From IMG/VR virus record IMGVR_UViG_3300031993_000017: DNA of 64,000 nucleotides, one strand, 5' to 3'. Origin of the DNA: a virus. Its lineage: Duplodnaviria; Caudoviricetes. Below are positions 3,262 to 58,546 of this stretch, piece by piece (position 1 is the stretch's first letter; each line of letters begins with the position of its first letter). Below the pieces are notes generated by a model. That model ran no database searches, had not been told where the DNA came from, and saw nothing but the letters and a program-made list of their open reading frames with translations. A program made the translations under genes and the position numbers.

Positions 3262-3284
3262 ATATTTGAAAGGAGGTGGGTCAT

Positions 3285-6809: not shown

Positions 6810-8306
6810 TTAGTATTCTTCTGTGTTATCTTGTGATACATTGATGTCCCAACTAGCAACTTCTGCACCAGTTCGTGGAAGTACTTCTGATAATATTTCA
6901 ATCAATGCTTCCTTGAAATCAGACCTATCATCTACACCCAAATTCTTGAGAAGGTCTACAACAGAACTAGCTTGATTGAGTGCTTGATCTCTCTTGTCAA
7001 ATTGAACGGTGCTCTGAATAGTGATAATCGGATTCATGTGAAGCTGGAACTTATCTACAAAGCCTTTCATTCCACGGCGTACAAAATACTTATTGAGAGC
7101 TTCCCTCCATCCTTCCATGTAAGCAGTTTCAAGACGCTGCAAACTGTTAGCATACAGAGCAGATCTCTGAGACATAACAGCTCCGGCTCCACCTAATCCT
7201 TCATTAGACGAATAGTTCATAGCCTCCTTAGGAACACCTAATACAGACAACTTTTTGTTCTGATAATAATCTAGAAGCTTGTTATCTGCTTCGGTAGCTT
7301 CTGCCATGTTTAAGTCAGTTACACTGATTGCATCGTTACCGTTTATCTTAGGAACATATATCAGGTTGTTAGGACTCTGAGGGTTCACGAAGCTTTGAAT
7401 GTCTCCTGTAGCAGTGTTTAACGAAAGCTGTTGTTCAATAGTATCCTTGACCTGTTGAAGTGTATTTCGTATCTCTTCTTCAACAGTACCACACTCTACA
7501 TTTATGAACTTGATTGTTCGATTCAATGAAGATAAAACTACTGCGTCTTCCAACAGATTCAAAGTCTGTGTAGGTGTAACTGCACTCTCCATCAGAGGAT
7601 CCGCAAACTTGATATCGTATTCGTATGTGTTGCCATCACCATCTGTAGTAGATACTTTGTAATCTCCGAGCATACCGCCTAACGCAAAATGTATAACCGA
7701 ACTTTCAGGAAACAGCGTAGTTCTATCGAATGTATCATTTTCGTCAGGATCAATCAAAAATCCTTCAGGCTCTCCCTGATACCAAAGATGCAAGATATCT
7801 TCTGGAGGTATCTTAGTAGAGGGAATGATGTCATATGTGTCATCTAAAACCGTATTACCGTCTAAAGCTACTCCGTGACGAATTACATCTCCAGACTCAC
7901 GTTTGTATATGTCCGTTGTTGGAATATACAAGTTTCCAATAGTAGCAAGCTCTAATATGTGGTCTCTAGCGTAGTTATTGATTTTCCATCTTCTGAACAA
8001 GTCATTTACTACCTGTGCGACTTCTCCGTCTTGCTCAGCATCTATAGGCGTAGCCCATATGATGTCTCCACCAGTGTTAACAGTAGTAGCGTCTGTAGCG
8101 TAATAAGAAAGTGCTGTTGCAATCTGTGAATCAGTTGCTAGAGATCTCATCGTGTTTATGCGTGTTCGAATAGTAGCGAAGCAAGAAAGCCCTCTTGCAT
8201 CAGAAATTCGATACATTGAACCACTGACAATATTTCGTATCCAAGAGATAGAAGGTCTGTTACTATTCAAAAGAAGTTTAGACACCCAATTTCTAACTGA
8301 AGCCAT
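6810..8306 (-). CDS. Portal protein (T4 gp20-like)
   Basis: Downstream of terminase; TLNLLEDAVVLSSLNR and YYQNKKLSVLGVPK motifs typical of gp20-type portals; 498 aa. Confidence 0.8.
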   Translation of the reverse strand: MASVRNWVSKLLLNSNRPSISWIRNIVSGSMYRISDARGLSCFATIRTRINTMRSLATDSQIATALSYYATDATTVNTGGDIIWATPIDAEQDGEVAQVVNDLFRRWKINNYARDHILELATIGNLYIPTTDIYKRESGDVIRHGVALDGNTVLDDTYDIIPSTKIPPEDILHLWYQGEPEGFLIDPDENDTFDRTTLFPESSVIHFALGGMLGDYKVSTTDGDGNTYEYDIKFADPLMESAVTPTQTLNLLEDAVVLSSLNRTIKFINVECGTVEEEIRNTLQQVKDTIEQQLSLNTATGDIQSFVNPQSPNNLIYVPKINGNDAISVTDLNMAEATEADNKLLDYYQNKKLSVLGVPKEAMNYSSNEGLGGAGAVMSQRSALYANSLQRLETAYMEGWREALNKYFVRRGMKGFVDKFQLHMNPIITIQSTVQFDKRDQALNQASSVVDLLKNLGVDDRSDFKEALIEILSEVLPRTGAEVASWDINVSQDNTEEY

Positions 8307-16797: not shown

Positions 16798-16803
16798 ACT
16801 GTA

Positions 16804-43956: not shown

Positions 43957-44463
43957 TCAAGATGTTCTAGGTCTATGACTCATGTTGTGCTGCATAACAT
44001 CAAGCATTCTAGCTTTTTTAATATCAACATGATCTTCATCTGCATAACAACTCCACGGAATTATGCTACAGCCGCCACGTGAGTTGAAGTCTCCATACAC
44101 CTCTAGATACTTCGGATCAAGAAGGTCTACCAGATCTTGCATGATAGCATGAACACATGACTCATGAAAATCACCGTGTTGCTGAAATGAAAATAAATAA
44201 AGTTTAAGTGACTTTGATTCAACCATATACTTATTAGGAATATAAGAGATATGGATTGTTGCAAAATCTGGTTGACCAGTACGGGGGCATTTCGAGCAAA
44301 ACTCGAAACAATCTAAGCTGACGATCTGCTCATCTTCTGTAGATTCTTCAAATTTTCGCTCGAACTTCTCGAGAATACTTGGATCATAATCAAATACATA
44401 CTTTGTATTTTGATTTCCAAGTAGTGTTACACCTGACAGGTCTTGTGTGTTACTGTTTGACAT
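43957..44463 (-). CDS. queF: NADPH-dependent preQ0 reductase (type I)
   Basis: CPRTGQPDFA, VESKSLKLYL QueF motif, FHE, RGG. Confidence 0.95.
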   Translation of the reverse strand: MSNSNTQDLSGVTLLGNQNTKYVFDYDPSILEKFERKFEESTEDEQIVSLDCFEFCSKCPRTGQPDFATIHISYIPNKYMVESKSLKLYLFSFQQHGDFHESCVHAIMQDLVDLLDPKYLEVYGDFNSRGGCSIIPWSCYADEDHVDIKKARMLDVMQHNMSHRPRTS

Positions 44464-44472
44464 TTTGAATGT

Positions 44473-44531
44473 CCTCCTTTTATTTTTGTTTTTAACGGTG
44501 AGGGTGTCAAGGAAATCTACAAAACTCACCG
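44473..44531 (-). promoter_or_regulatory. Candidate preQ1-I-like riboswitch variant, copy A (queF leader)
   Basis: Stem CGGUGAG/CUCACCG, loop UUUUGUAGAUUUCCUUGACACC, tail UUAAAAACAAAAAUAAAAGGAGG. Confidence 0.72.
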
Positions 44532-44546
44532 GTACTTACATAAATT

Positions 44547-45638
44547 TTATCTTGCTGCTTCTCTTAATTCGTTTACTTTCTTCTGGATTGTTCGTGCAAA
44601 TGACTTTTCAGAAGGTAGTGTCCGCAAATTCAATTGATAAGTATTTTCGTAGTTACCTAATCCTATAACTAGCTCTATTGACGTGTAACGCCTATCGTAA
44701 CGACTATTCCTTTGTGCCAATGGTGTGTAGCAATAGAGACTCAACATATCTTCAAGCGAAGTTTTCCCTTCTTCTTTTGGTTGTCCGTTGTCATCTAAGT
44801 ACGGGGAGTACCGAGGCGCATAATGTACATCAAATGAAATGTCGGGGTACTCAAAACGGGCAGTATCAACCATCGCCTCAAACCGATCTCGATAGCTTAT
44901 TACTTCTGATAAATCGTCGCAGCGCAGTTCAAAATTGTCATGTATTTTCTGAAAATATTCGAGCTTACTCTCTAGATAAGATTTAAAATCATTACAACAG
45001 GTTTCGGTAGCTTTATCTACAAATCCTATCTTCAGAATGTTGTCCTTACCGAACGTACTATAGAAATCAGATTGTTCTGAAATAATCGGATCTTCAGTTA
45101 ACGACATATCAACAGTTGTGTACACGGCAATACCTGAATAGGTAGTAGGGTTGATATCGACATCAATATTAGATACATCTAATCCAGGATAAGGAAGTAA
45201 AGATTCTAATGAATCTTTGATATGATCGGCAAAATCTGAGCTCACAAGATACGATATAGTTTCTTCTTGATCTAATGTGTAAGGAATCATACCTGAGTTA
45301 TCGGTAGGATGAAAACCTCTAACCTGCACCCCATCAAATGATATGTCGCAAAATCCGCTAAAGTTTACAGAATCATATCCGGTTTCAAATGATTTAAGAT
45401 AAAATACTGGCACATCATGAATAACGCATGTTACAGTAACACTATACTCACCATGATAATGGTAGGGCTCACCGATATGGAGTATTTCTGCACTAGATCT
45501 TGTACCATAAAATTTGTTCAGGTATTCTTCTAGATAATCGTTCACTCTTTGAACAACAAGCTCCTCCCAATTCTCAGGAAGTGTTGCAACATCCTTCTTC
45601 TTAGGTCTTAAGGTAGATGAATAAATTCTCTTTCTCAT
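44547..45638 (-). CDS. Hypothetical protein with MRKRIYSS leader
   Basis: ATG 45638 after SD GGAGGA. Confidence 0.65.
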   Translation of the reverse strand: MRKRIYSSTLRPKKKDVATLPENWEELVVQRVNDYLEEYLNKFYGTRSSAEILHIGEPYHYHGEYSVTVTCVIHDVPVFYLKSFETGYDSVNFSGFCDISFDGVQVRGFHPTDNSGMIPYTLDQEETISYLVSSDFADHIKDSLESLLPYPGLDVSNIDVDINPTTYSGIAVYTTVDMSLTEDPIISEQSDFYSTFGKDNILKIGFVDKATETCCNDFKSYLESKLEYFQKIHDNFELRCDDLSEVISYRDRFEAMVDTARFEYPDISFDVHYAPRYSPYLDDNGQPKEEGKTSLEDMLSLYCYTPLAQRNSRYDRRYTSIELVIGLGNYENTYQLNLRTLPSEKSFARTIQKKVNELREAAR

Positions 45639-45673
45639 GTATTGTGTCCTCCAACTTATCTTTTGTTCTGTAA

Positions 45674-46036
45674 TCAAGAGTTCTCCGAAATTTCGTTTAA
45701 GATGTAACTTCGGTATAATCGTTTGAAGTCACTCGGAGAATTTGACTTATGACAAATTTCTAATATATCATAATTGTATTGATAAACAGAAATTCCAAAT
45801 TCCTCAAACCGATCGTCTCCGGTATCATCACTGAATATGAAGACTGCTTCTGACCCGTAACCTTCAGCTTCCATAAATACATGTAAATCATCTAGCACTT
45901 CCCACTCGTATTTAACAACATGTGCTGCGAGATCTTGCATGGCCTCATCGTACTCATATTGAGTCATTTCGGTATCAAATATACCTAAATCAAAATCATT
46001 TAACCAATCGGTTGATGAATAAATTTTCTTTCTCAT
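45674..46036 (-). CDS. Acidic hypothetical protein with MRKKIYSS leader; paralogue of 46979-47317
   Basis: Shared WEVLDDL..FME..GYG...F.FSDD.G.DRFEEF. Confidence 0.7.
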   Translation of the reverse strand: MRKKIYSSTDWLNDFDLGIFDTEMTQYEYDEAMQDLAAHVVKYEWEVLDDLHVFMEAEGYGSEAVFIFSDDTGDDRFEEFGISVYQYNYDILEICHKSNSPSDFKRLYRSYILNEISENS

Positions 46037-46053
46037 GTGCTATCCCTCTCAAG

Positions 46054-46485
46054 TTAAATTCGCCCGTAGTTGTCATTCTTAGCTTCTTCTCTTGATGAAT
46101 ACACCCAAGAATCAATTTCACCAAACGGAATACCTCCTTCAGGATCTCTTGGCAGTGAAGATAAGAATATTTGATTGTATATGATATCGTTAAATGCTTC
46201 TTCTACGTCAAAGCCGTCTTCATAATAGTCCATCAAATAGTCGTCTATAGCAGAGTTTATTCCACCAGGGCAAACTACCCTCCAGTATTCATTGTAACCG
46301 TCCCACGTAGTTTTAACTACGCTACCAATTTTAGGAACAGTTCCTTGTGCCACAGCGTCTCTATACATTTTCCTAAGAATAGCTTTAGAGCTAGGTTCAG
46401 AGCTGGAAGCCTCAATTTTTAATTTACCTGATAATGTTCCGAGTGTTTTGGATCTTAAAGTTGATGAATAAATCTTTCTTCTCAT
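46054..46485 (-). CDS. Acidic hypothetical protein with MRRKIYSS leader; paralogue of 46506-46946
   Basis: Shared LSGKLKIEASS, WDG..EYW, SLP.DP.GG.P. Confidence 0.7.
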   Translation of the reverse strand: MRRKIYSSTLRSKTLGTLSGKLKIEASSSEPSSKAILRKMYRDAVAQGTVPKIGSVVKTTWDGYNEYWRVVCPGGINSAIDDYLMDYYEDGFDVEEAFNDIIYNQIFLSSLPRDPEGGIPFGEIDSWVYSSREEAKNDNYGRI

Positions 46486-46505
46486 GATGTTACTCTCCTT
46501 CATAT

Positions 46506-46946
46506 TCAACGCTGAATTCCGAAGCTATCTTCATTAGCTTCTTCAAAGGATGAGGGTTCCCAAGAATCAAAATCACACAACGGAGTACCCCCATAAGGAT
46601 CTGCAGGCAAACTTTTTACCCACAGTTTATTGTAAATGAATTCAGCGAATTCGTCTTCTAGACTACTGCTGAGTATGTCTACATCCTCATCGTACAGAAA
46701 TTCATCTATAGCGCCGTCTAAGCCATCTATGCAAAATACTTCCCAGTATTCGTAAATACCGTCCCATTCAGTTTTGATTATACTTCCAACTTCCGGAATG
46801 TTTCCTTTATCTACTTCAGATTGATACACACGCATCAATTTAGCTCTAACATCAGAATCTATGCTGGAAGCTTCAATTTTTAATTTACCGGACAATGTTC
46901 TAGGTGTCATTGATCTTGAAGTTGATGAATAAATCTTTCTTCGCAT
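46506..46946 (-). CDS. Acidic hypothetical protein with MRRKIYSS leader
   Basis: Tandem paralogue of the preceding gene. Confidence 0.7.
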   Translation of the reverse strand: MRRKIYSSTSRSMTPRTLSGKLKIEASSIDSDVRAKLMRVYQSEVDKGNIPEVGSIIKTEWDGIYEYWEVFCIDGLDGAIDEFLYDEDVDILSSSLEDEFAEFIYNKLWVKSLPADPYGGTPLCDFDSWEPSSFEEANEDSFGIQR

Positions 46947-46978
46947 ATCCCGATCCCCTTCAATTTTTAATAATCATT

Positions 46979-47317
46979 TTACAGTAATCCTGCTTTTTTA
47001 GAAATGTAACTTTTGTAAAGACGCTTGTAAGCATTTTCAGAATTAGATCTACGAGCCATATCTAGTGTATCCTGTTCGTATTCTCTAGAAGGAATGTAAA
47101 ATTCTTCAAATCTATCCTCTCCGCTATCATCTGAGAAAAAGAACTCAGCTGCTGCCCCATAACCAGCAGTCTCCATGAATATCTGTAAATCATCTAATAC
47201 TTCCCATTCGGGACCGGATAAGCATTCTCCAAGCTCCAAAATAGCATCATCATATTCAGCTTCAGTCATCTCATCTGCATCATCAAATACAGATAAATCA
47301 AAATCTAACCAACTCAT
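46979..47317 (-). CDS. Acidic hypothetical protein, paralogue of 45674-46036 without leader
   Basis: Sequence similarity by eye. Confidence 0.65.
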   Translation of the reverse strand: MSWLDFDLSVFDDADEMTEAEYDDAILELGECLSGPEWEVLDDLQIFMETAGYGAAAEFFFSDDSGEDRFEEFYIPSREYEQDTLDMARRSNSENAYKRLYKSYISKKAGLL

Positions 47318-47335
47318 TTTTAGATCTCCTTTTGA

Positions 47336-47716
47336 TCAATCTTCGTACTCATCATCGTATTCGTCGTCATCGTACTCATCATCGTCGTCATCATACTCGT
47401 CCAATCCAAGAAGTTCTTCAATTGAGATATCCAGATCATACAAGGTCCGCTTTCCTTGACGAATGTAAATTGGAAATGGCGACCCGTCACCGATATCTTG
47501 TTCTTCGAAAAATTCTACGAAATCTTGTGCAGCGTCAAACTCATCAGAATCATCCTTGTAAGGGAATAACTCTTCATATATCGCTTGAAGTGCTTCATAA
47601 TCATTGTCACATTCGATTTCGTCGTCGTAGTAATCTTCCAGATCGTCTTCGGTGCTAGGCCGTCGCTCAGCACATGCTGTATTGTTGAAAATACGATAAG
47701 TGTATAATTTACTCAT
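47336..47716 (-). CDS. Highly acidic hypothetical protein
   Basis: D/E-rich with EYDDD repeats; SD AGGAGG. Confidence 0.65.
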   Translation of the reverse strand: MSKLYTYRIFNNTACAERRPSTEDDLEDYYDDEIECDNDYEALQAIYEELFPYKDDSDEFDAAQDFVEFFEEQDIGDGSPFPIYIRQGKRTLYDLDISIEELLGLDEYDDDDDEYDDDEYDDEYED

Positions 47717-47737
47717 CAGTCTATCCTCCTGATTTCT

Positions 47738-48109
47738 TTAACGATTCACAGCATTAGGTAATCTACCTCTTCTGTCGCCTGTTAACTTAGAATATTTATA
47801 ATTGTTACGGATATACAGCCAGAAGAAGTGACCTTTACTGGTAGCGGACAACCACTTTCGATACATTACAACCGGAAAGTCGTAATAACAATAAATATCT
47901 CCCGGCCCACCTCGTTTGTTCTTAAACTGAACATATAATGTGCCTGTTTTATCTTTCCTGCTTGCTATATCTATCATGAAAGCCCAGATGTTAGAAGACG
48001 CAGTTCGTATCAGACCTTTTGCAACATCTCTTGCAGAAGCTGCCATGATAGGTCGCTTAGTTATACGCAATGTAGGTTGATATGAAGATGTTATCTTATA
48101 TACTTTCAT
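47738..48109 (-). CDS. KTSC-domain protein
   Basis: SSNI......TLYVQFK....Y.Y..FP...Y......SKG.FF...IR..Y. Confidence 0.7.
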   Translation of the reverse strand: MKVYKITSSYQPTLRITKRPIMAASARDVAKGLIRTASSNIWAFMIDIASRKDKTGTLYVQFKNKRGGPGDIYCYYDFPVVMYRKWLSATSKGHFFWLYIRNNYKYSKLTGDRRGRLPNAVNR

Positions 48110-48137
48110 ACTAGCTGCTCCTACCATGTTAGGTTAT

Positions 48138-49109
48138 TCACCAACCTTCGTACTCATCTTCTTCTTCGTCATCATCCCACTCAGCTTCTTCATTCTCATC
48201 TTTTTCACCGAAGTTGGGATATTCTCTCTCTAGATCGTCTAACCATCTCTCAAGGTCGTTGAAATATTCACTGTCCCAAGACTGATACTCTTCCTTATCA
48301 AGATCGTCAATCTCAAACCAATCTCTAGCACGCTGATGCACAGTTCCGCCGTACTGGCGTGCAAGATCCTCTAAGAAATAATATACGTCGTCCCAACTTA
48401 CACAGCCGTTCTCTATGTATCTCTCTAAGTCTCCTGAAGTATCAACATCATAAGAATATTCAGGAGCCATTTCAGCTACAGAATATTCACCAGAATAATC
48501 TCTACTTCCGTCGGATTCTGTCACCGGTTCTCCAAATACTTCCATGTGGTCTTGTAAGAAATCTAACAGATATTTTGCAATATCATACAATGCTGCGTCA
48601 TATTCTTCATCCTCGAGTTCCTTCTGAGCAATAACTGTAAATTTATCGAGGATCTTATCAGAACCGGAATATTCTATAACTTTGTCGATTATGTATTCGG
48701 CACTAGATGCACAAGTTTCTTTGCCATATCCGGAATAGAATACATCTCCGTCATTCCAAGATCGATACAAGAGACGGTTGATTGCTCTTACAAGCTCTCC
48801 GCCGACGTTCTCACATTTACCAGATGATGGTACTAGTGCGTTAAACAGATACTCAAGGCAAGCTTGTACATCTCCAGATTCTGGATAATCTCTGTACACC
48901 TCGTCATAAGTTGCTTTTGCGGCCTGACGCTTCTCTTCGAGTATTCTTGCTTCTTCTTCCTGACGCTTCTCCTCGGCATATTGAGCATTCGCCTTTCGGC
49001 TAACTTCCTGTGCGCTTTCGTAGCCGTAATCTCTCATATCGGTAGGAAATCGCATGTTTCCAATCTTGACATAATCTGCATCTGAAGAAAATATGTATTT
49101 TTTGGACAT
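48138..49109 (-). CDS. Acidic hypothetical protein with MSKKYIFSS leader
   Basis: LVP.SG......GELVRA..R..YR.WNDGD domain. Confidence 0.65.
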   Translation of the reverse strand: MSKKYIFSSDADYVKIGNMRFPTDMRDYGYESAQEVSRKANAQYAEEKRQEEEARILEEKRQAAKATYDEVYRDYPESGDVQACLEYLFNALVPSSGKCENVGGELVRAINRLLYRSWNDGDVFYSGYGKETCASSAEYIIDKVIEYSGSDKILDKFTVIAQKELEDEEYDAALYDIAKYLLDFLQDHMEVFGEPVTESDGSRDYSGEYSVAEMAPEYSYDVDTSGDLERYIENGCVSWDDVYYFLEDLARQYGGTVHQRARDWFEIDDLDKEEYQSWDSEYFNDLERWLDDLEREYPNFGEKDENEEAEWDDDEEEDEYEGW

Positions 49110-49163
49110 ATTGTACCTCCATATTTTTTAGTTTGATATATTAAGATAAGGTTTTGAACATAT

Positions 49164-49703
49164 TTACTCTAACCCGTATTTACTAAGTTGTGCTTTCCAG
49201 CGGCCAATACCATTTCCGCCGGAAGTTTCTTGTAAAGTATTCAACCAAGTTCTTGACCACTCCCAAGAATCTGGTACGTCAAATCCTTCGTAGTCGTTCT
49301 TGACCCAGAGCCATTTGTGATGGAATATGTATTCAGAGTGTCCTTTCTTTATAGTACCGTCTGAAAATACTGTGATATAATCTCCGACTTTCGGCTCTCT
49401 TGCAGAATCAAAGTCTGGAACTTCTTGAAAAGAAACTGACTGAGTTTTAGGAGAATATCGAATACAATTATATTCATAATCTGGATATTCGGATTCAAGA
49501 GTATCAACTGTAAACTCCCACAAGTCTGCAGGTACAATCTCAGCGGCGTAGTTCTTGTGAACATAAATATCACCGCCGATTTCCTTTCCTACACCATATT
49601 TAGATCGCTTGATAGGACTTCCTTTGTAGGTCTTAAGTGTCTGTCCGACTTCTGTCCTACTGTTGTTGTATTCTTCAAAACTTGCGAAAACATATCGTTT
49701 CAT
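49164..49703 (-). CDS. Hypothetical protein with MKRYVFAS leader
   Basis: GKEIGG.IYVHK, PDFD...EP, HHKW.WV..DY.GFDV. Confidence 0.65.
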   Translation of the reverse strand: MKRYVFASFEEYNNSRTEVGQTLKTYKGSPIKRSKYGVGKEIGGDIYVHKNYAAEIVPADLWEFTVDTLESEYPDYEYNCIRYSPKTQSVSFQEVPDFDSAREPKVGDYITVFSDGTIKKGHSEYIFHHKWLWVKNDYEGFDVPDSWEWSRTWLNTLQETSGGNGIGRWKAQLSKYGLE

Positions 49704-49707
49704 TTTA

Positions 49708-50031
49708 TCACCTAAAAATTTCAGCGTCATTTATGCTGGAGATATCACCGTAATCTTCATAAGACTGACTCATCTGATCAGGAGAAAAATACCGCTTCTT
49801 GCCTGATACTAAATCTTCCCATATAACATAAGCACCGATGCTAACTTGATCAAAAGCGTAGTCTAAAGATTCTTCGTAGTCTGCAAAGTCTTTTGAATCA
49901 GAAAGCCCTCTAAAGTTGCTGCCTGTGTAGCCACTTACTCTGTAAACTTTTTCATCAGAGATGCTATCACCAAATACAGGTTTTCCAGAAATGTTACAAG
50001 TGTTGGTTGCGGTTTTGATATATCTTTTCAT
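49708..50031 (-). CDS. Hypothetical protein with MKRYIKTA leader
   Basis: 107-aa ORF with SD. Confidence 0.6.
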   Translation of the reverse strand: MKRYIKTATNTCNISGKPVFGDSISDEKVYRVSGYTGSNFRGLSDSKDFADYEESLDYAFDQVSIGAYVIWEDLVSGKKRYFSPDQMSQSYEDYGDISSINDAEIFR

Positions 50032-50034
50032 AAT

Positions 50035-50184
50035 CTACTTCTTTCCTTTCTTTTGTTGTTCTTGTTGTGAAATCTTTATAGCGATACCTTGCTTAGTTGC
50101 TTTTTCTTTCGCTCCAGGTCCTTTATATACCTTACCTGTTTTACCCCATTGGTATCCACCGTCTTTGGTTTTGTGTACAGGCAT
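50035..50184 (-). CDS. Small basic protein (49 aa), absent from the ORF track
   Basis: MPVHKTKDGGYQWGKTGKVYKGPGAKEKA..QG.AI; SD AAGGAG. Confidence 0.7.
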   Translation of the reverse strand: MPVHKTKDGGYQWGKTGKVYKGPGAKEKATKQGIAIKISQQEQQKKGKK

Positions 50185-50188
50185 AAGA

Positions 50189-50812
50189 TCACTCCTTACC
50201 GATACCGATAACAGCTAACTTGTTATTTGAATCGTTTACAATTCTATACCCGAATCGCTCAATGTTACGTTTGTTTTTATTCAAGTAGTCTATAAGAAGT
50301 GTGATCGGAACGGTGTTGTTTATATCAGAATCCCTATCATAAGTCAACGTATAGTATTCGCCACGACCATTATATTGAACACCATCATTATAATCTATAT
50401 CATAGCCATCCTTGGTAAGAAGATCATAAGTATGCTCAATAGAATCAGTAATATCATAAATAGTACGAAGTGGTTCCGTCGGAGTATTATAGCTCTCTAC
50501 TACATCCATAACATCTTGATACGACAATTTCTTGGTAGTGCCAAAGAATTTACTAATGTATTTATTAAAATCAGCTATAGCCCATTCAATATCTTTGGAA
50601 GAATAGAAATCATCAAAGTAAGTATCTGGATCGTTATAATCTGTAACATGAACACTATACTGATTTTTATTCTGCTTTACAAAGCTAGCCCTACCATGAT
50701 CACAGAAGTATTGCGCAATCGTAGCAGATTCATCTACATCTGGATAAGCATCATGATTGTAATGGTAAACAATATCGTCGGTTGTAAAACTTGCCTTAAT
50801 GTATCTTTTCAT
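50189..50812 (-). CDS. Hypothetical protein with MKRYIKAS leader
   Basis: ORF with SD AAGGAG. Confidence 0.6.
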   Translation of the reverse strand: MKRYIKASFTTDDIVYHYNHDAYPDVDESATIAQYFCDHGRASFVKQNKNQYSVHVTDYNDPDTYFDDFYSSKDIEWAIADFNKYISKFFGTTKKLSYQDVMDVVESYNTPTEPLRTIYDITDSIEHTYDLLTKDGYDIDYNDGVQYNGRGEYYTLTYDRDSDINNTVPITLLIDYLNKNKRNIERFGYRIVNDSNNKLAVIGIGKE

Positions 50813-50828
50813 ATGCATCACTCCTTAT

Positions 50829-51170
50829 TTATTCAACAAAATAATGATAAAAATCATAAGTTCTACTAGATGAATTTTCAGTACATTTATAATCTATTTC
50901 AAATAAATCATGCAGTGATTCAAGTTCATCTTCCAAAGAATCAATAATTTGAATGTCATTGATTATTGCAATAACAAACATATCTATATATTTATCTCCA
51001 TAAGAATCAATTTCAGTCTGTATGTAAGCATCCTGAATTTCTATATCAAAATAATTGAATATGTTTAAAATATAGTCTTCTTCATCAGGTGATATTGGAT
51101 ATGTCTCTTTATGGTTGAACATAATTGAACTGAATATACCTTTGTTTTTCTTGCTTTCAACATAGTACAT
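50829..51170 (-). CDS. Acidic hypothetical protein
   Basis: 113-aa ORF. Confidence 0.5.
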   Translation of the reverse strand: MYYVESKKNKGIFSSIMFNHKETYPISPDEEDYILNIFNYFDIEIQDAYIQTEIDSYGDKYIDMFVIAIINDIQIIDSLEDELESLHDLFEIDYKCTENSSSRTYDFYHYFVE

Positions 51171-51334
51171 AAGTTGCTTGAATTGATTTATATCTAATGG
51201 ATCTTCACAATCTTATATTGTATACCTTCTGTACCATCAATTTGCTGTCTTCGTCTCGGCGAGATTTTAGCTCAGCCCACGCTTTGTCAAAATCTGTCGT
51301 GGAAGAAATTGTAAATTTACTGTAATCAATAGAA

Positions 51335-51532
51335 TCATTCAAAATCAACCATCTCCTGTAACCTTTTCATAAACTCATCTCCACGCATTGTATGTGGTTT
51401 AGGTTTTCCAAATTTAGCATTCCATCTGTCAAAAAACTCAGAATCACTTTTATTGTGCATTGATTCAGAGTCAACATCATTGTACCTTGTTGTCATTTCT
51501 GGAACATTTTCAGATTTAATATATCTTTTCAT
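51335..51532 (-). CDS. Small protein with MKRYIKS leader
   Basis: 65 aa, coupled to upstream ORF. Confidence 0.55.
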   Translation of the reverse strand: MKRYIKSENVPEMTTRYNDVDSESMHNKSDSEFFDRWNAKFGKPKPHTMRGDEFMKRLQEMVDFE

Positions 51533-51744
51533 ACCAGTATCCTTTCTGCATCACACTGAGCAGTTTCTATATCCTTATACAAAATATCATGTCCTAAACT
51601 ATCCTGAACATAGGTCCAATCTGCTTCAAGATCGGAAATGCTTTTGTATTTCAATTTGTATGACGATTTGTCATTCCCGCAGATGATAATCTCTACGATG
51701 TAGTTATCATCTACAAAGATGTTGTAATTCAATATTCCGGTCAT
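51529..51744 (-). CDS. Hypothetical protein
   Basis: 71 aa; SD GAGGAG. Confidence 0.5.
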   Translation of the reverse strand: MTGILNYNIFVDDNYIVEIIICGNDKSSYKLKYKSISDLEADWTYVQDSLGHDILYKDIETAQCDAERILV

Positions 51745-51755
51745 AATAACTCCTC

Positions 51756-53219
51756 TCAGAAATCATGAACAATTTCTTTGACACCGCATTTTTCAATGAT
51801 ATCGTCAAACTCATCTGTATGTATAAAGACTGTGAGATTTTCGCAACCCCAGAAAGCCTCAGCACTTATTGTTAATACAGAGTCTGGAATGACAAGTTTT
51901 GTTAAGTTTTCACATCCTCGGAAACAAGAAAATCCTATCAATTCCAGGCTAGAAGGTAGATTTATATTCTTCAAAGACTCACACCAGAGAAATGCCGAAC
52001 CTCTTAATCTAGTCACACCCTCAGGTAGACGAACAGTCTCTAGTTGTCCGCATTCTTTGAAACATCGTGCAGGAATTTCATCTACTCCATTTGGTATCAC
52101 AACTTCAGTCAATTTTGCTCTCCAGAATGCTCCGGTACCTAAACGTACATTATTGGGTAGATCTACGTCGCGTAATCCAGACTCTGCAAATGCACCTTGT
52201 CCAATTGAGCGAACAGACTTAGGAATCTTTACTGATACTAGGTTAGGACATTCGTCAAATGCCCAATCAGGAATCTCTTCAAGACCTTCTGGCAAAACTA
52301 CATGTTGGATGCTTTCATTTTCTGAAAATGCGCCGCTATCTAATGTAGTACCTTTTAGTAATGTAAAATCAGACGAATCTTCATATGATTTTACAAATTG
52401 TGGTTTATCGTGACTTAGTTCAACATCACCAAGTTTTGTTGCTTCTCCATACTTGTACAATTCAGAATCACGTACAACATACTTCGGCGACTTGTCTATA
52501 TGATAATCAAGTGCTTTTGCAAATGGTGGATGGTCTTCTAAGAATTCTATCAATCGTTCCAGACCTAACTCATCGTCGTTGAAATTGAAGAACCAAGATT
52601 TCGTAGAAGGGCTGCTTTGGTACTTGCGTTTTGGATTCCGAGTATTGATAAAAATATAGAGCGGACCATAATAAGAATACCGTTTCCAATATGCATCATC
52701 ACCGGAATAGGCTGTACACCATTTTGCTTTCTCACCGCCCCACTGGGCGAGTGAAATTGAGCCTTCGTAGGTCAATGGTTGCCAAAGCTCCCACTCTTTA
52801 TCTTTTGCAAGCAATTTCTTATCCTTATCGCCTGCGTTATGCACATTTCGTTGAAGCTCTTTTTGACGTTCGGTGTCTGAAAGTGGAAGTTCACCAACTC
52901 TTGCAGAATCCTCCAAGAACTCATCTACAGTCTTGTATCTTCCTAAGTCAGAGTATGTGAAGGACTTGGATCTCTTGACAAACATATCTAACGCATCTTT
53001 AATATTGTTGTAATCATAATTGCTGAAATTTTGTTTAGAATATTGATTCAGAAGCCAGACTGCATATTTTCCACCTGAAGTTGAACCTTCCTTGAATGTT
53101 GGATCTAGCCTTATGATTTCATCAAAATCATCTTTGCTGATGGAAGGAAACTGGGTGATAAGTCGGTCAATGCTGACTGCAGAGCTAACATAAGTAAATG
53201 ATTTTATATAACGTTTCAT
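51756..53219 (-). CDS. BspA-type leucine-rich repeat protein with MKRYIKS leader
   Basis: About 8 repeats of L..V.IP..V..IG..AF..C; N-terminal domain with KWCTA motif. Confidence 0.85.
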   Translation of the reverse strand: MKRYIKSFTYVSSAVSIDRLITQFPSISKDDFDEIIRLDPTFKEGSTSGGKYAVWLLNQYSKQNFSNYDYNNIKDALDMFVKRSKSFTYSDLGRYKTVDEFLEDSARVGELPLSDTERQKELQRNVHNAGDKDKKLLAKDKEWELWQPLTYEGSISLAQWGGEKAKWCTAYSGDDAYWKRYSYYGPLYIFINTRNPKRKYQSSPSTKSWFFNFNDDELGLERLIEFLEDHPPFAKALDYHIDKSPKYVVRDSELYKYGEATKLGDVELSHDKPQFVKSYEDSSDFTLLKGTTLDSGAFSENESIQHVVLPEGLEEIPDWAFDECPNLVSVKIPKSVRSIGQGAFAESGLRDVDLPNNVRLGTGAFWRAKLTEVVIPNGVDEIPARCFKECGQLETVRLPEGVTRLRGSAFLWCESLKNINLPSSLELIGFSCFRGCENLTKLVIPDSVLTISAEAFWGCENLTVFIHTDEFDDIIEKCGVKEIVHDF

Positions 53220-53233
53220 AGACGTACCTCAAA

Positions 53234-53671
53234 TCAATAGAGTGTTTCATAATCTTCGAAGTATTTATCAATTCGTTTCCGTACTTTTTGTTCAATCTTC
53301 TTACAACCTTCTTGTAAATCTTCAAATTGATTAGGCCTGAAAAGATCGAATCCAACAGTTACTTCATCAGGATTCTTCAAAATAGTATTCACACGGATTT
53401 TATTCTGATATGTTGTAATATCTAAGATTACATCAATCTCCTGCATACCTTCTTCAGAATATTTTCGTACTTGATTCTTGCCGACATACACAGGAAGTTC
53501 ATATAGAACAGTCAGATAAACATAGAAATGGTTCGGACCTTTTGAAAATTTATATGCTCCGTCAATATGTTCATATAAGTGTTTACCTACTCGGTTTACT
53601 AATTCACTTGCTTGTGGTTCTTTCCATTTTGTAGGTTGTCTATCAGCTACAATTCTAATCAATCTCTTCAT
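53234..53671 (-). CDS. Hypothetical protein
   Basis: 145 aa, starts MKRLIRI. Confidence 0.6.
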   Translation of the reverse strand: MKRLIRIVADRQPTKWKEPQASELVNRVGKHLYEHIDGAYKFSKGPNHFYVYLTVLYELPVYVGKNQVRKYSEEGMQEIDVILDITTYQNKIRVNTILKNPDEVTVGFDLFRPNQFEDLQEGCKKIEQKVRKRIDKYFEDYETLY

Positions 53672-54171
53672 TCTGGAACCTCTTCAAAACATTTACTAAG
53701 TGCTTGATACAAGCCGGGATCGCGTCTTTCAAAGTTTTTCTGTTTGGTGAAAATAGATCCAGTCGGTAATTTGTATTCATAGTAATATTCAGCAAAAGAA
53801 TACTTACCATACGGATTTGAATATGCTTCATCAATCTTATCATTTGTAAGAAACACATAATTCATTGTACGATAGGCGTCTACATAATCAACATCTTCAT
53901 GGAATTTTTTCATATCCTGTGAAAGATATGGAAACCAACCTTCCAAAACTGCAATCGCTAAAAGATCGTCATGTAGGAACTCAATTGCATCACCGATCAG
54001 ATAAATGTCACCATCATTTTTAGTAGAACCGTAGATATCTGAAGGTACATAAACAATTCTGTAACATTTAGGTTTATTCAACAATAAATTTACAATATCA
54101 CCAGCATAATCAGTTAAGATAATATCGTCTGATTCTAATTTATGTAATGATGCCCTTATGTATCTTTTCAT
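53668..54171 (-). CDS. Hypothetical protein with MKRYIRAS leader
   Basis: ATG 54171 after SD GAGGAG. Confidence 0.6.
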   Translation of the reverse strand: MKRYIRASLHKLESDDIILTDYAGDIVNLLLNKPKCYRIVYVPSDIYGSTKNDGDIYLIGDAIEFLHDDLLAIAVLEGWFPYLSQDMKKFHEDVDYVDAYRTMNYVFLTNDKIDEAYSNPYGKYSFAEYYYEYKLPTGSIFTKQKNFERRDPGLYQALSKCFEEVPE

Positions 54172-54195
54172 ATCAATATACTCCTCACATACCTC

Positions 54196-54230
54196 CAACT
54201 ACATCAAATCAATATGAAATGATGTAGTTG
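54196..54230 (-). terminator. Hairpin after the tail fibre-like gene
   Basis: CAACTACATCA...TGATGTAGTTG inverted repeat. Confidence 0.5.
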
Positions 54231-54241
54231 GGTTAAAAAAA

Positions 54242-57232
54242 TTAAATAGACACTTTGTTCATTCGTAAATTGATCTGAACTGACATATGTGCATTATCAG
54301 AAGCAATCAAATATGGTGCGGTAGGATGTCCATCATAAGTTATTGGGTCTCTCAACTGATTGTTTAATCCATCTGAAATCGTTTCTGCAACTAAATCAAA
54401 TACCATAGCAAAATTTCTATACGGATCATTCGTGGTAGAAATTACTCCACCCTGTGTATCGCGGGTAAGATCATACGCCACGGCAGAACCAAAATGCTCT
54501 CTAAGCCACCCATCATTTATCTCACTTATATTATCAAAAGTTGCCATTTTAATGTTTCCATTGTCTACAATGAATGGATATCTACAGATTAATCTGTATC
54601 CTGTAGCATAACTTAACCTAATTTTATCTGAGTTTGATGCACTTGAGGATGGAGTACCGACGTATGCCCTCCAGTTAATAATATTGTCATTAGTTCCGGA
54701 TGTAGGTGCATCAATTAAAACACGTGATACATTTCGAAATGCATAATCTTCATCTCCGAAAAACATCTTTTTACACATGGCAGGAGTAATACCAAATCTA
54801 GCGATTATTCCATGATCCCACTTGTAGTATTTATACGTTACACCATCAATGGTATCAGTACCTTTTTCATTATACGATCTTCCGTGTGTATAGAATAGTG
54901 AGCTTCCAGTTGGAATTTCACTACTTCCTAACCCAGACGATATAGCATCTGCAATACATAAACCATATTTGATTGCTGGAAGAACAGTAGCATTGTCCAA
55001 CTCCCAATCAGAACCTTGCCATGCACCTGTAACTGGTGTATTTGAAATGCATACATACTGTCCGCTATTTACGATAACATAGTCACCTCTGTAGTATGTT
55101 TTTGATGAATCATAGGCCGTAACTACCGCAGTAACTTCTCTCCAATATCCAGCATTTACATTACCATTGGTCAACAATGGTGCCTGATCTAAAGTATCAT
55201 CTCGTATACATCTGAATTTTCTCACATTTGATTTAGCATCTGTATAAGAACAATAATCCAGTGTATTGTATGTGAGTGTGCTTGAATATGTACTAGGAAC
55301 AACTGTCATATCACCGGCATCTACAGATACAGATTCAGAAACTTGTAATACCCCGGAGATTGGAATGTCATTTGACATACTGACAGTATAAGCCATACCA
55401 AGTTTTTCTCTATGTGCAGTATCACCATATGAGGTAGGTGGATTATTACTGTCTGGACCAGATAAAATATAATCTTTCCAACTGTATCCAGAATAATCTA
55501 TACGACGGACTACACCAGTATAGTACCCATTGATGGGCTGATATGTATTATTCGGATCTAATAATTGTTTTGCTCTAAGTGGATACCAAACACGATAGCC
55601 AGTGTATGGGGTGTTCGTATAATCAGAACTGCTCAAAACAGGTCTGGAGTTTGTAATGGTATATTCATCCCCATTTTTAGCAATATCAATTCCTACACCG
55701 GGCTTTAATTTCATGGTATTCTCAAGATTTACAACACCATTACTGGAAGTTACATCGATTCCGGTGGTTTGAGGTTTCTTCTGAATTGTCTGACTAACTG
55801 TAAATGTCTTTACACCACCACTCGTGGAAGGTGTAATCTTTATAGAAGATGTATTTGCATCGGTTACAACATTGATCTGCCCTGTCATATCTGCGGAAAT
55901 TTCCCAAGCACCTGTTGTAGCGTTCCGTGTTACCGTAACTGCTGCATTACCGGCTACGATGCTATTCAATGCATATAATCCTTCAGATCCTTGCATTGAC
56001 AAGATACCGTTTGTAAGATTTAATGCAGTAGTACCGACAAATGTTGACTCATAATCAGATAATGTGGAGTTATCATTGTTTCTGAAAATCTTTACAGTTC
56101 CGGGAGCTACAACATCAACAGGATATTGATGCCTTACCGCTACTGTTCCATCTGCAACTGGTTCTTGAAAGTTTGCATACAATGCAGGTGGATAATTACC
56201 ATATTGAGAATATACATTCAAAACATTTGTATAAAGTGTAGGCGATGATAAATATTTATAACGCATATCAACGCCCGCGATATCACTCGGAGTTGATTCG
56301 CAATAAAGCGTATAGATAGTATTTTCTTCATCTCCATAAATCTCATCAAGGTCTGTATTTATATCAAAGATTGTATATTCTGATGAAATATCCGAAGTCT
56401 GATCCGTTGTTTGAATGCCATGCATGTACTTTTCATATCCTGCAGGTGTTGTAAACACAATAGGTGTACACCACGGGAATATTTCAGGTCCTAGAAACCC
56501 ACCATTTACATGATCATTGTCAATCGGATCGGCAGAACCGCCGGAAAGCACAGAAGTGCCTCTCAAAATATTTCTATCTGTAAATCCTATCAAAAGAATC
56601 ATAGGATTATGCGTGATATATTCACCACCACGATTTGCAAATAATCTAAGCACAGGAACAGGTGAGGGTTCTCCGGCTTTCTTATCTACTTGAACCTTTG
56701 TAAGATCATAGTGTGGTTCAACCTCTTGAAGTCCATAATCAGCAGATTCTGTCCAAGTGCCACCTTGAAGAATCACACCTTTATCGATCTTCAAATAGTC
56801 CTGAAATTTTTTCAGATAAGTACGAGTATACTCACCAGATTGACCTACCATATGTGGGATATCCGTAGCTTCAGTTGGACCACTCGGATATGTCGTCGCT
56901 CCATTTGCTACCAAAGGATGATATCGCATTACCTTAGTTGCCCAATGGTCTGACAAAAATACAGCTTCACCATCAAAGAATGATGCGATGATAGTATTAG
57001 CTGCACATAATCTTGTCTGGCTTGGAAATGGGATATCAATGAATTTTCCATTGAATGAAGGAACTTCTACAATCATAGCTGCACCCATAGCAAGCATTGA
57101 TCCTAACCATTCACGTTCTGTAGCGATATCCCCGGATTCAGGATCTAGCCCGGAAGCAATCGCATTTTTCACATAAAGTTCATAGGCACTGAATCCTACC
57201 ACACGACCTTCATTATAAATTTCTTTTGACAC
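54242..57232 (-). CDS. Tail fibre / receptor-binding-like structural protein with CBM-like repeats
   Basis: G.SAYE...EWL.SM N-terminus typical of fibre/baseplate proteins; Y...DY repeats ending GAW..SDW; GTG start after GAAAGGA. Confidence 0.6.
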   Translation of the reverse strand: MSKEIYNEGRVVGFSAYELYVKNAIASGLDPESGDIATEREWLGSMLAMGAAMIVEVPSFNGKFIDIPFPSQTRLCAANTIIASFFDGEAVFLSDHWATKVMRYHPLVANGATTYPSGPTEATDIPHMVGQSGEYTRTYLKKFQDYLKIDKGVILQGGTWTESADYGLQEVEPHYDLTKVQVDKKAGEPSPVPVLRLFANRGGEYITHNPMILLIGFTDRNILRGTSVLSGGSADPIDNDHVNGGFLGPEIFPWCTPIVFTTPAGYEKYMHGIQTTDQTSDISSEYTIFDINTDLDEIYGDEENTIYTLYCESTPSDIAGVDMRYKYLSSPTLYTNVLNVYSQYGNYPPALYANFQEPVADGTVAVRHQYPVDVVAPGTVKIFRNNDNSTLSDYESTFVGTTALNLTNGILSMQGSEGLYALNSIVAGNAAVTVTRNATTGAWEISADMTGQINVVTDANTSSIKITPSTSGGVKTFTVSQTIQKKPQTTGIDVTSSNGVVNLENTMKLKPGVGIDIAKNGDEYTITNSRPVLSSSDYTNTPYTGYRVWYPLRAKQLLDPNNTYQPINGYYTGVVRRIDYSGYSWKDYILSGPDSNNPPTSYGDTAHREKLGMAYTVSMSNDIPISGVLQVSESVSVDAGDMTVVPSTYSSTLTYNTLDYCSYTDAKSNVRKFRCIRDDTLDQAPLLTNGNVNAGYWREVTAVVTAYDSSKTYYRGDYVIVNSGQYVCISNTPVTGAWQGSDWELDNATVLPAIKYGLCIADAISSGLGSSEIPTGSSLFYTHGRSYNEKGTDTIDGVTYKYYKWDHGIIARFGITPAMCKKMFFGDEDYAFRNVSRVLIDAPTSGTNDNIINWRAYVGTPSSSASNSDKIRLSYATGYRLICRYPFIVDNGNIKMATFDNISEINDGWLREHFGSAVAYDLTRDTQGGVISTTNDPYRNFAMVFDLVAETISDGLNNQLRDPITYDGHPTAPYLIASDNAHMSVQINLRMNKVSI

Positions 57233-57292
57233 GTTATTATTTCCTTTCAAATTATTTAACGTTAAAATTTTGAAATATTTATTGTTCAACGC

Positions 57293-58546
57293 CTAAATAT
57301 TACATGCGTTTACCACAATTGGATGTAACGCTACACCCTCTACTCCGTTTGCATAGGCATTCGGAAATACTTTTTTAAGAATCTGTAAACTCCCATTCAC
57401 ATCGGCGTTGATAAGTTTCTCCGTATTACTCTGAAATAATCCTCTGTGGACTCGTCTCTCTTTTCTGTAGTTCTCTTTAATCGGTGATTCATTATCTAAG
57501 AAACTTGTTCCACTTGTATAACTTTCTTCTGTGAGCACTACAGATATACCATATTCTTCAGCTTTATATTGGATCATCTCTATCAATCTGTTATATGGTA
57601 TCTGTATAAAAGATTGGTTAATTCTTTTGCTCATTTCTGATTTCTGTTTCCAACCTTTATTTTTGCCTATAACTATTACAGAAACATCGTCTTTACGAGC
57701 TTTGTCAACTATGTATCTACTTGCCTGATGTAAATAGTTGTCAACAATCTGATTTCTTTTTTCTGTTATACTCCGTATCCTCTTTGTCGAATGTCTATTA
57801 TTCATTCTCATAGCAATTGACTTATAATGAGCTAACAATTTATTGTAGTATTTGTTCTCAGACTTCAGACCCTTACCGTTTATTATAAATGGTTGTTCAC
57901 CAAAATTATTTGTTACGGTTGCTAAGTTATCTAAGCCTATGTCAATACTATAATATCTGTTATTATCACCTATTGTTTCCGAAATTTCTACATTATAAAC
58001 CACCTCCAATTCAATATGATTTGCTTTAGGTATGAACCTTACTTGCTGAAATGACACATAGTTTTCTTTGCTTATAAATAATGGCTCAACTGTAAAACCA
58101 TTAAATACTTTTGGAAACTGTAAGATACCATTTTTCAATTTTACTTCTTGATTTGTAAGGATCAAAATTGATCTTCCGTTTTTATCTTTGTACTTTGGCA
58201 GTTTCGGTTTTCCTAAGTATTTATCTTTATGGTTCTTCCAATCTTTAATTGATGCAAAGAATGATTTCCAATTCTTATCAAGTAATCTAAGTACCTGCTG
58301 TGCAGACTGTGCGGTTGGCATATTTTTATAGTCAGGATACCTTGCATCAGCTTTCAATGTTTTATCCAAGTCTTCATATCTTAACCAGTTGTCATTGTTT
58401 ACAAATTCTTGTCTAATTAAATAGTTGGCGTGGTTATACAAATTTTTTGCGTTAAAGCAAAAACCATCTATAAGATAATAATAAGTATTTGTTTGTCTGA
58501 TTTTGTGTTTTTCTACTCTTTGAATTACCATATTTATTATTACCAT
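57293..58546 (-). mobile_element. tnpB: Second TnpB (IS200/IS605 family, no tnpA)
   Basis: SIDIGLDNL, IVIGKNKGWKQ, EESYTS, INADVNGSLQI. Confidence 0.9.

Follow-up and report, generated by a model that had tools for sequence, protein, structure and literature searches.

The window analysed here is a stretch of 64,000 nucleotides from a tailed virus (Duplodnaviria; Caudoviricetes; IMG/VR record IMGVR_UViG_3300031993_000017), a fragment of a divergent large myovirus. On its minus strand, at 44547-54198, an array of 19 open reading frames (ORFs) lies between queF and a gene for a fibre-like protein of 1015 amino acids (aa). Between 11 and 13 of these 19 genes start with the peptide M-[KR]-x-[YK]-[IV]-x-[AST]-[AS] (MKRYIKAS or MRKKIYSS type), here called the tag. 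The tag stands in a fixed register, belongs to one clade of phages, is modular and disordered, and is identical to motifs conserved at head-protein junctions of that clade. On circumstantial grounds, the eight-residue tag is on balance probably a capsid-targeting and clip-off signal of the type known from phage T4, with a different cut motif. That it confers packaging and that the tagged proteins (the cargo) are injected, we infer.

A reading of the sequence alone (the original prediction) had claimed a shared leader on about a dozen small proteins of this region. All starts that it quoted were found on the minus strand, at 45638, 46036, 46485, 46946, 48109, 49109, 49703, 50031, 50812, 51532, 53219 and 54171; genes are named below by these positions. 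One further tag-like start, MKRLIRIVA, is present at 53671. A regular expression for the tag, picked after the data were seen, matched 11 of the 19 array genes and 0 of the 65 genes elsewhere in the window (Fisher p = 4e-9), which bears out the claim. A ribosome-binding site of the GGAGG type lies 6-12 nucleotides (nt) upstream of most tagged starts, with weaker sites at 50031, 49703 and 51532. Apart from this site, the DNA upstream of the tagged starts is not conserved. The four MR[KR][KR]IYSS starts are near-identical in DNA, with 24-27 nt shared almost exactly, and from this likeness may be recent local copies; the MKRYIK starts vary at synonymous sites.

The proteins behind the tags had been described as unrelated. 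This was largely upheld: the bodies are mostly acidic, with isoelectric points (pI) of 4-5, and Pfam names only KTSC and BspA-type leucine-rich repeats (LRR; LRR_5) among them. Two pairs of paralogues qualify the description. With the first 12 residues removed, BLAST joined only 46036 with 47317 (54%) and 46485 with 46946 (47%). The untagged 47317 protein aligns from its residue 3 to residue 11 of the tagged 46036 protein, and the tag is therefore a separable add-on of about nine residues.

A degenerate DNA pattern for MKRYIKA was scanned over IMG/VR and gave 75 stretches. This pattern alone retrieved related phages of 90-250 kb with up to about 45 tagged genes per genome. Contigs with several matches carry a TerL that is 45-63% identical to that of the window. 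In seven of ten further large pattern-matched contigs the capsid proteins are 59-67% identical to that of relative G002, and the three contigs with no capsid match are fragments (45-78% complete). Six relatives (G001 to G006) were gene-called, and motif statistics were computed over the seven genomes with their 1151 proteins. The core motif [IV]-x-[AST]-[ASTGN] begins at residue 5 in 89 of the 1151 proteins (7.7%) as against 0.97% at any position, an eight-fold peak. A smaller peak at residue 3 is due to the short MKIY[AC]S form in G005.

The consensus of the tag is M-K-R-Y-I-K-[AS]-[AS], with the variants MR[KR][KR]IYSS and MKIY[AC]S. The residue counts in 82 tags are K2 74, R3 53, Y4 65, I/V5 82, K/R6 66, A/S/T7 77 and A/S8 61. 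Arg3 is encoded by AGA (29), CGA (12) and CGT (8), and Ile5 by ATT (24), ATA (20) and ATC (19). Since synonymous codons vary, selection acts on the peptide. The 82 tagged proteins form 67 BLAST families, of which 55 are singletons, and include no replication, metabolic or structural proteins. G002 holds about 45 tagged genes in two arrays. The related locus L024 is 88% identical to the window over 54181-51513 and 73% at the KTSC gene. Between conserved flanks, 3.5-4 kb have been exchanged there for other genes, most of them again tagged (MK[KR]YIKS).

Judged by protease, the nearest cultured phages are Streptococcus phage GXN1, Bacillus phage SP-15 and HSE3, all outside the tag-bearing clade. 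In SP-15 (316 ORFs) and GXN1 (238 ORFs), both low-GC phages of Firmicutes with a protease of the clade's family, the motif begins at residue 5 in three and two ORFs, respectively, which is the background of about 1%. No N-terminal pentamers are in common among the ORFs of SP-15 and GXN1, and no equivalent shared tag ending in Glu was seen in either phage. The tag thus marks one clade and does not reflect a bias at start codons common to such phages. The original prediction had named translation-initiation bias and equal frequency in early enzymes as grounds for refutation; these two AT-rich phages show no such bias, and the enzymes are untagged. A search of full-text literature found no paper containing 'MKRYIK'.

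Gene 49703 provides structural information on the tag. An AlphaFold2 model, built with 45 homologues, reaches a predicted local distance difference test score (pLDDT) of 93, with residues 1-6 below 50 and the first helix at residues 9-14. The tag of this protein is thus predicted to be disordered and exposed, with the fold starting near residue 9. In about 85% of 120 homologues the tag is present and is separated from the conserved body by a linker that varies in length; the distant homologues are untagged and begin with the body itself. Fused proteins retain the motif internally. A tagged L024 protein of 302 aa holds the whole of gene 50031 as its second domain, and its internal L-N-D-Y-V-N-S-A↓T-N-T aligns to M-K-R-Y-I-K-T-A↓T-N-T of gene 50031 (the arrow marks a putative cut here and below). 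A second fusion has S-I-Q-A-A↓T at the corresponding place. In two homologues with two domains each, the second domain is preceded by M-K-R-V-I-T-A-A↓N (P0127) and K-P-I-K-A-A↓V (P0121). In the L024 orthologue of the KTSC gene the N-terminus differs and PITAAS is retained. The retention at internal junctions is hard to reconcile with an effect on translation start and fits a cut site. The original prediction had also listed internal copies of the motif (LKIEASS, RPIMAAS, AIKSSS). These are present, but second copies within residues 9-30 of tagged proteins are not clearly enriched (16 against about 9 expected, not significant).

The head genes of relatives contain the same motif. G002 encodes a protease-scaffold fusion of 485 aa, with matches to phrog_207, to Peptidase_S77 (E = 4.6e-5, which does not reach the Pfam cut-off) and, by tblastn, to T4-like prohead core proteases. 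It adjoins a capsid protein of the Gp23 family (E = 1e-14), in which the Pfam match begins at residue 89. The junction between protease and scaffold reads [IV]-A-A-S in four clade members. At the C-terminus of the scaffold stands V-T-A-S in three of these four and V-S-P-Q in G001, and a small acidic head protein has V-K-A-S-like motifs near both ends. Two motifs are retained in all 11 capsid proteins of the clade: [IV]-T-[AS]↓x and, directly ahead of the conserved body, [IV]-x-[AG]↓A-T-N-T. In a MAFFT alignment, I-T-A↓A-T of G002 shares columns with M-F-E↓T-T of SP-15 and L-L-E↓S-T of GXN1, and this site sits 31 residues before an SV(Q/A)xM(S/R) block common to the three. The tags end in the frame of these junctions, Y-I-K-A↓S or [IV]-x-[AS]↓[AS]. 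The proposal that the motif be sought in scaffold and capsid propeptides was thus borne out by [IV]-x-[ASG] at the capsid, protease/scaffold and scaffold C-terminal junctions of relatives. At the capsid junction, Ala or Gly of the clade occupies the place of Glu in SP-15 and GXN1, and the clade seems, on this alignment, to cut after Ala, Ser or Gly where SP-15, GXN1 and T4 cut after Glu.

The closest known system is the capsid-targeting sequence (CTS) of T4, MKTYQEFIAE. Of its 10 residues, 4 and 7 serve targeting, and 8 and 10 serve processing; the diverse internal proteins have nothing but the CTS in common, and the cargo genes lie in fast-changing loci (PMC9026906, PMC3012670). The tag resembles the CTS as a short N-terminal peptide that is the sole similarity of otherwise unrelated proteins, and both start M-K-x-Y, the one part of their sequences that agrees. 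The heads are also alike, with Portal_T4 in the window and a Gp23-family capsid protein and an S77-like protease in relatives. The CTS ends in the cut motif of the head protease itself, and the tag ends in the conserved junction frame, where a cut would be expected from sequence conservation. Several differences exist. The tag has 7-8 residues rather than 10. T4 cuts after Glu in [LI]-x-E, whereas the putative cut of the clade is after Ala, Ser or Gly in [IV]-x-[AS], with no Glu at the end of the tag. T4 has 3-4 tagged genes, against 11-13 in the window and up to about 45 per genome in relatives. Unlike in T4, the protease of the clade is fused to the scaffold and the cargo is mostly acidic.

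By analogy with T4, the tag would bind the protease-scaffold core of the assembling prohead, so that the protein is enclosed. The T4-type (S77-like) head protease of the clade would cut after the small residue 7, in the frame [IV]-x-[AS]↓[AST], and the trimmed cargo would remain in the head and be delivered along with the DNA to the next cell. With a tag so short and self-contained, a gene of any kind could be added to the cargo on acquisition, which would explain the fast turnover of the arrays. The T4 analogy of the original prediction is carried by the T4-type head, the junction motif, the disordered and separable tag, its internal retention and a polyvalent cargo domain (see below). It is not carried by the effector role or by the early promoters in G002.

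Herpesvirus assemblin, which shares a fold with T4 gp21, cuts maturation and release sites of the form (V/L/I)-x-A↓S. The likeness to the clade lies in the form of the motif and in its position at the protease/scaffold junction and near the scaffold C-terminus. By sequence the protease of the clade is of the S77 lineage, and the apparent resemblance in specificity may be convergent. Herpesviruses are not known to mark a range of cargo proteins with such a site. In the giant phages phiKZ (gp175) and SPN3US (gp245), many head-internal proteins, their packaging established by mass spectrometry, are reported to be trimmed by a T4-related prohead protease, after Glu in S/A/G-x-E, and to be ejected (PMC5694885, PMC7411985, PMC10052503). 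Their propeptides are long and do not form a shared tag of eight residues.

Several observations weigh against a packaging signal. Neither the protease gene of this phage nor that of its major capsid protein falls within the window, so that the link to the head protease rests on relatives. The junction motifs there are putative cut sites, judged by their conservation. Being short, the core motif often arises by chance (about 0.5-1% per position); the cargo bodies are not depleted of it, and its extra copies near N-termini, as given above, show no significant enrichment. The four MR[KR][KR]IYSS tags, being near-identical in DNA, are not independent instances. Tagged genes make up to about 18% of the genes of a genome, far above the cargo known for any phage, and the mostly acidic cargo contrasts with the basic T4 proteins IPII and IPIII. 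In G002, host-type promoters (TTGACT-17-TATAAT) head both tagged arrays (8054, 72131, 76527, 92911) and none occurs in the structural modules, so the arrays look early and not late. An upstream k-mer search found no late-promoter motif, only the ribosome-binding site and AATCGTTA. On the last point of timing, T4 packages CTS fusions expressed from plasmids, and early synthesis therefore does not exclude loading.

The AATCGTTA motif occurs mainly in G001, before replication and other genes, and is specific neither to arrays nor to late genes. TCAAATATATCT was considered as a late motif and rejected, as it occurs only three times. A scan of the array of the window for sigma-70 promoters and terminators found no more sites than in shuffled sequence. 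A separate element, AAATCGTTA(T/A)nATA, precedes many G001 genes by 30-60 nt, frequently in combination with a TATAAT-like box. Its 66 sites in G001, most of them intergenic, compare with about 36 expected. In G002 and in the window (63949, 62334, 18612) the element is far less frequent; on sequence grounds it is a candidate phage-specific promoter element.

Early promoters would also be expected if the tag were a site for a cytoplasmic protease or a degradation signal (host Prp-type or Clp-type) that activates early proteins or limits their lifetime. This explanation is unlikely, although it survives better than the others. Prp-type proteases trim ribosomal protein L27 and some Firmicutes phage capsids, with the substrate core (K)LNLQ[FH]FA↓S, and cut just before Ala-Ser. 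The tag likewise ends in Ala-Ser, and it is disordered and exposed. In addition, L126 has a Prp-type LNLQQFA on a capsid-like protein whose neighbour is a polyvalent protein. The LNLQ[FH]F core itself was found in none of the tags, however, and their [IV]-x-[AS] frame matches the capsid, scaffold and protease junctions of the clade's own head. As far as is known, T4-type head proteases act only inside proheads, and SP-15 and GXN1 have no tag although their hosts process L27 too. A Sec, Tat or lipoprotein signal peptide does not describe the tagged N-termini, which are polar or acidic after residue 8 with no hydrophobic stretch.

Still less probable is an expression cassette, in which K, Y and I at codons 3-5 and A/T-rich codons would speed early elongation and give high yield. 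In E. coli reporters the highest yields were obtained with K or N and Y or I at codons 3-5, an effect due in part to the amino acids as such (PMC6920384). K, Y and I abound in the tag, and the arrays look strongly expressed, with good ribosome-binding sites and, in G002, consensus promoters. This leaves residues 7-8 (both A/S) and the strict residue order unexplained, and CGA or CGT is frequent at Arg3. Highly expressed structural genes (sheath, portal) and all enzymes are untagged, the AT-rich phages SP-15 and GXN1 lack the bias, and the motif is kept at internal junctions far from start codons. An expression benefit may coexist with a targeting role, given the effect of these residues on yield in E. 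coli.

The array adjoins the fibre-like gene, three tagged proteins have BspA-type LRRs and one has HEAT/LRV repeats. From this, the tag could be a docking peptide that plugs LRR, HEAT and KTSC modules onto the fibre, the baseplate or the capsid surface by strand addition. This appears improbable. The cargo consists mostly of small, acidic, non-repeat orphans, the arrays of relatives do not adjoin tail genes, and docking gives no reason for the motif at capsid propeptide and scaffold junctions or between fused domains. A functionless similarity, left by common descent or by recombination reusing the same 5' end, would suit the four near-identical MR[KR][KR]IYSS starts and the large paralogue families with conserved starts in G001 and G005, but is very improbable given the synonymous variation of the MKRYIK starts with unrelated upstream DNA, the 55 singleton families and the conservation of the tag across genomes whose TerL proteins are only 45-63% identical.

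The cargo itself was examined for functions. The original prediction of effectors with a role in anti-defence or host takeover gained no support: of 88 tagged proteins, only five have a clear Pfam domain (LRR, HEAT/LRV, KTSC), and one more matches BrxC-helical weakly. The body of the 49703 protein, from residue 9-11 to 179, is 55-61% identical to a domain in proteins of 4267 aa and 3257 aa (L123, L126), which also carry LPD38, DarA_C, SNF2, methyltransferase and ART-PolyVal domains. A tagged G001 protein shares the methyltransferase domain of polyvalent proteins; among the window's other cargo genes, none showed a link to such proteins. Packaging and injection have been predicted for polyvalent proteins of the phage type (Iyer, Burroughs, Anand, de Souza and Aravind 2017, PMC5512222). 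Both they and the tagged proteins would be delivered with the DNA, and the 49703 body domain is found in both. They differ in that a polyvalent protein is one giant polypeptide processed by its own peptidase domain, whereas the cargo here is made from separate small genes, each with its own tag.

The 49703 body domain is also fused to CCA-adding enzymes. In other phages it is joined to a CCA-adding enzyme, to methyltransferase-like or to other N-terminal domains (P0143, P0145, P0130, P0131). H128, R102, E103 and K40 are invariant and H129 nearly so. The body may be an unrecognised enzyme acting on RNA ends or tRNA. Comparison of the model with the PDB gave no match above noise (best Foldseek E = 0.05, best VIA-align Z = 3.7), and the ESM Atlas gave no usable lead for the orphans of 363 aa and 323 aa.

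More tentatively, and somewhat short of probable, an uncultured T4-like clade of rumen or gut type may have switched its head protease from Glu to herpesvirus-like Ala/Ser sites. The tag would have evolved in step, on up to one sixth of the genes, and the capsid would have become an open-ended vehicle that injects exchangeable effectors by the dozen with the DNA, among them pieces of polyvalent proteins that now have genes of their own. If the tag indeed serves loading into the head, the injected proteins of a whole uncultured phage group could be listed from sequence only, dozens per genome. These proteins would act in the first seconds of infection, and anti-defence and host-takeover factors would be expected among them. 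The loading and clipping of T4 would be general and scalable, with address tag and protease specificity changing together. A shift toward the Ala-Ser sites used by herpesviruses would bear on the common ancestry of capsid maturation in phages and herpesviruses. A portable tag of eight residues would also be a practical handle for loading phage heads with foreign proteins in Gram-positive systems, as the T4 CTS already is in E. coli.

Table 1. Features of the array, its edges and the remainder of the window
Coordinates	Strand	Feature	Evidence
44547..45638	-	Tagged gene, 363 aa, MRKRIYSS, acidic orphan	Pfam, PHROG, Atlas: no match
45674..46036	-	Tagged gene, 120 aa, MRKKIYSS; paralogue of untagged 46979-47317 (55% identity)	BLAST
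46054..46485	-	Tagged gene, 143 aa, MRRKIYSS; KLKIEASS (residues 21-28) as a second copy of the motif	Paralogue of 46506-46946 (47%)
46506..46946	-	Tagged gene, 146 aa, MRRKIYSS; second motif copy KLKIEASS	Paralogue of 46054..46485
46979..47317	-	Untagged paralogue of tagged 46036 gene, 112 aa, MSWLDFDL	Alignment
47336..47716	-	Untagged very acidic protein, 126 aa, 37% Asp+Glu	Composition
47738..48109	-	Tagged gene, 123 aa, MKVYKITSS; copies RPIMAAS and IRTASS before KTSC domain; basic, pI 10.4	Pfam
48138..49109	-	Tagged gene, 323 aa, MSKKYIFSS, acidic orphan	Sequence
49164..49703	-	Tagged gene, 179 aa, MKRYVFAS; body domain shared with phage polyvalent proteins	Homologues
49708..50031	-	Tagged gene, 107 aa, MKRYIKTA; C-terminal domain of the 302-aa tagged L024 protein	Alignment
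50035..50184	-	Untagged basic protein, 49 aa	phrog_31267
50189..50812	-	Tagged gene, MKRYIKAS	Start at 50812
50829..51170	-	ORF without a ribosome-binding site at 51170, start uncertain; residues 10-15 (KGIFSS) are a motif copy	
51335..51532	-	Tagged gene, 65 aa, MKRYIKSE	
51529..51744	-	Untagged gene, 71 aa, kept in L024	
51756..53219	-	Tagged gene, 487 aa, MKRYIKSF; C-terminal BspA-type LRRs	LRR_5, E = 1e-47
53234..53671	-	Clade-wide conserved gene, 145 aa, MKRLIRIVA; orthologues with differing tag-like starts	
53668..54171	-	Tagged gene, 167 aa, MKRYIRAS; L024 orthologue starts MKRYIKAS	
43957..44529	-	QueF-like gene, untagged; downstream edge of array	
54242..57289	-	Fibre-like protein, 1015 aa, untagged; upstream edge of array	N-terminus kept in G001 and G002
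150-2513		Tail sheath	
6810..8306	-	T4-type portal, Gp20 family; sole T4-type head gene in window	Portal_T4, E = 7e-14
9926-12238		Large terminase	
39.6-44.5 kb		Queuosine-precursor operon	

The features of the array and the remainder of the window are listed in Table 1. Nearly all genes of the window are on the minus strand, and replication genes are also present. A megablast search with 44000-55000 against GenBank phages gave no match, and a search of IMG/VR for relatives of the fibre-like protein found none. Tagged LRR relatives of gene 53219 are present in G005. The untagged acidic protein at 47336-47716 ends in a run of Asp, Glu and Tyr (DDDDDEYDDDEYDDEYED) and resembles DNA-mimic proteins in composition.

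A tag-like start in the head module (MLERIYAS, 13894-14583) had been reported by the original prediction. It is present, with a GTG start codon, but its N-terminus is kept among orthologues and may belong to the fold. The gene, near the terminase genes, encodes a conserved protein of 229 aa with N-terminal I-[YLF]-[AST]-S-K-[ML]-[YF] in five of six orthologues, followed by a long low-complexity region rich in Ser, Pro and Asp. It may be a head-associated protein with a tag-like start.

DpdA/TGT-like proteins (phrog_887), encoded at 16804-17766 in the window and by orthologues in G001-G006, all share the start M-x-x-Y-[VIY]-F-S-G. This start and that of QueC (MKALVLSSGG) match loose regular expressions and were rejected as tags, because these N-termini are conserved within their own enzyme families. 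The resemblance in DpdA, judged a feature of the enzyme family, is still striking in a phage that modifies its DNA with 7-deazaguanine. A tag linked to radical-SAM chemistry was also rejected; QueE, which belongs to the que operon, is the sole radical-SAM enzyme that the window encodes, and the tag has no relation to it.

Two large lineage-specific expansions with tag-like starts occur in relatives. G001 (L002-L010) contains about 20 paralogues of 105-150 aa that start MSIYVKTSxGA (e.g. at 75123-78847, 84183-87959 and 107547-109714), and G005 contains about 35 paralogues that start MKIY[AC]S and have a conserved GKD[IL]WV motif. The terminase match in G005 (C1:84074-86253) is in two pieces, the first with one in-frame TGA; an intron, an intein or a frameshift is possible. 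In L126, the protein of 310 aa at 16291-17223, beside the polyvalent protein, starts MNKNRKLYMLNLQQFADV, which contains the L27/Prp-type cleavage motif LNLQQFA.

Two ORFs of the window resemble TnpB/IS605-type transposases, at 3276-4553 (+) and 57293-58546 (-), the second being phrog_506 (E = 2.5e-49). One TnpB-like ORF lies directly between the fibre-like gene and the genes upstream of it, and the L024 array holds a different ORF of 418 aa. A recurrent ORF of 31-32 aa that starts MKRYIKASVTVA and has no ribosome-binding site was found in L017, L022, L025, L026, L030 and about 13 more pattern-matched loci. It occurs in many unrelated small IMG/VR contigs and is probably a different conserved element.

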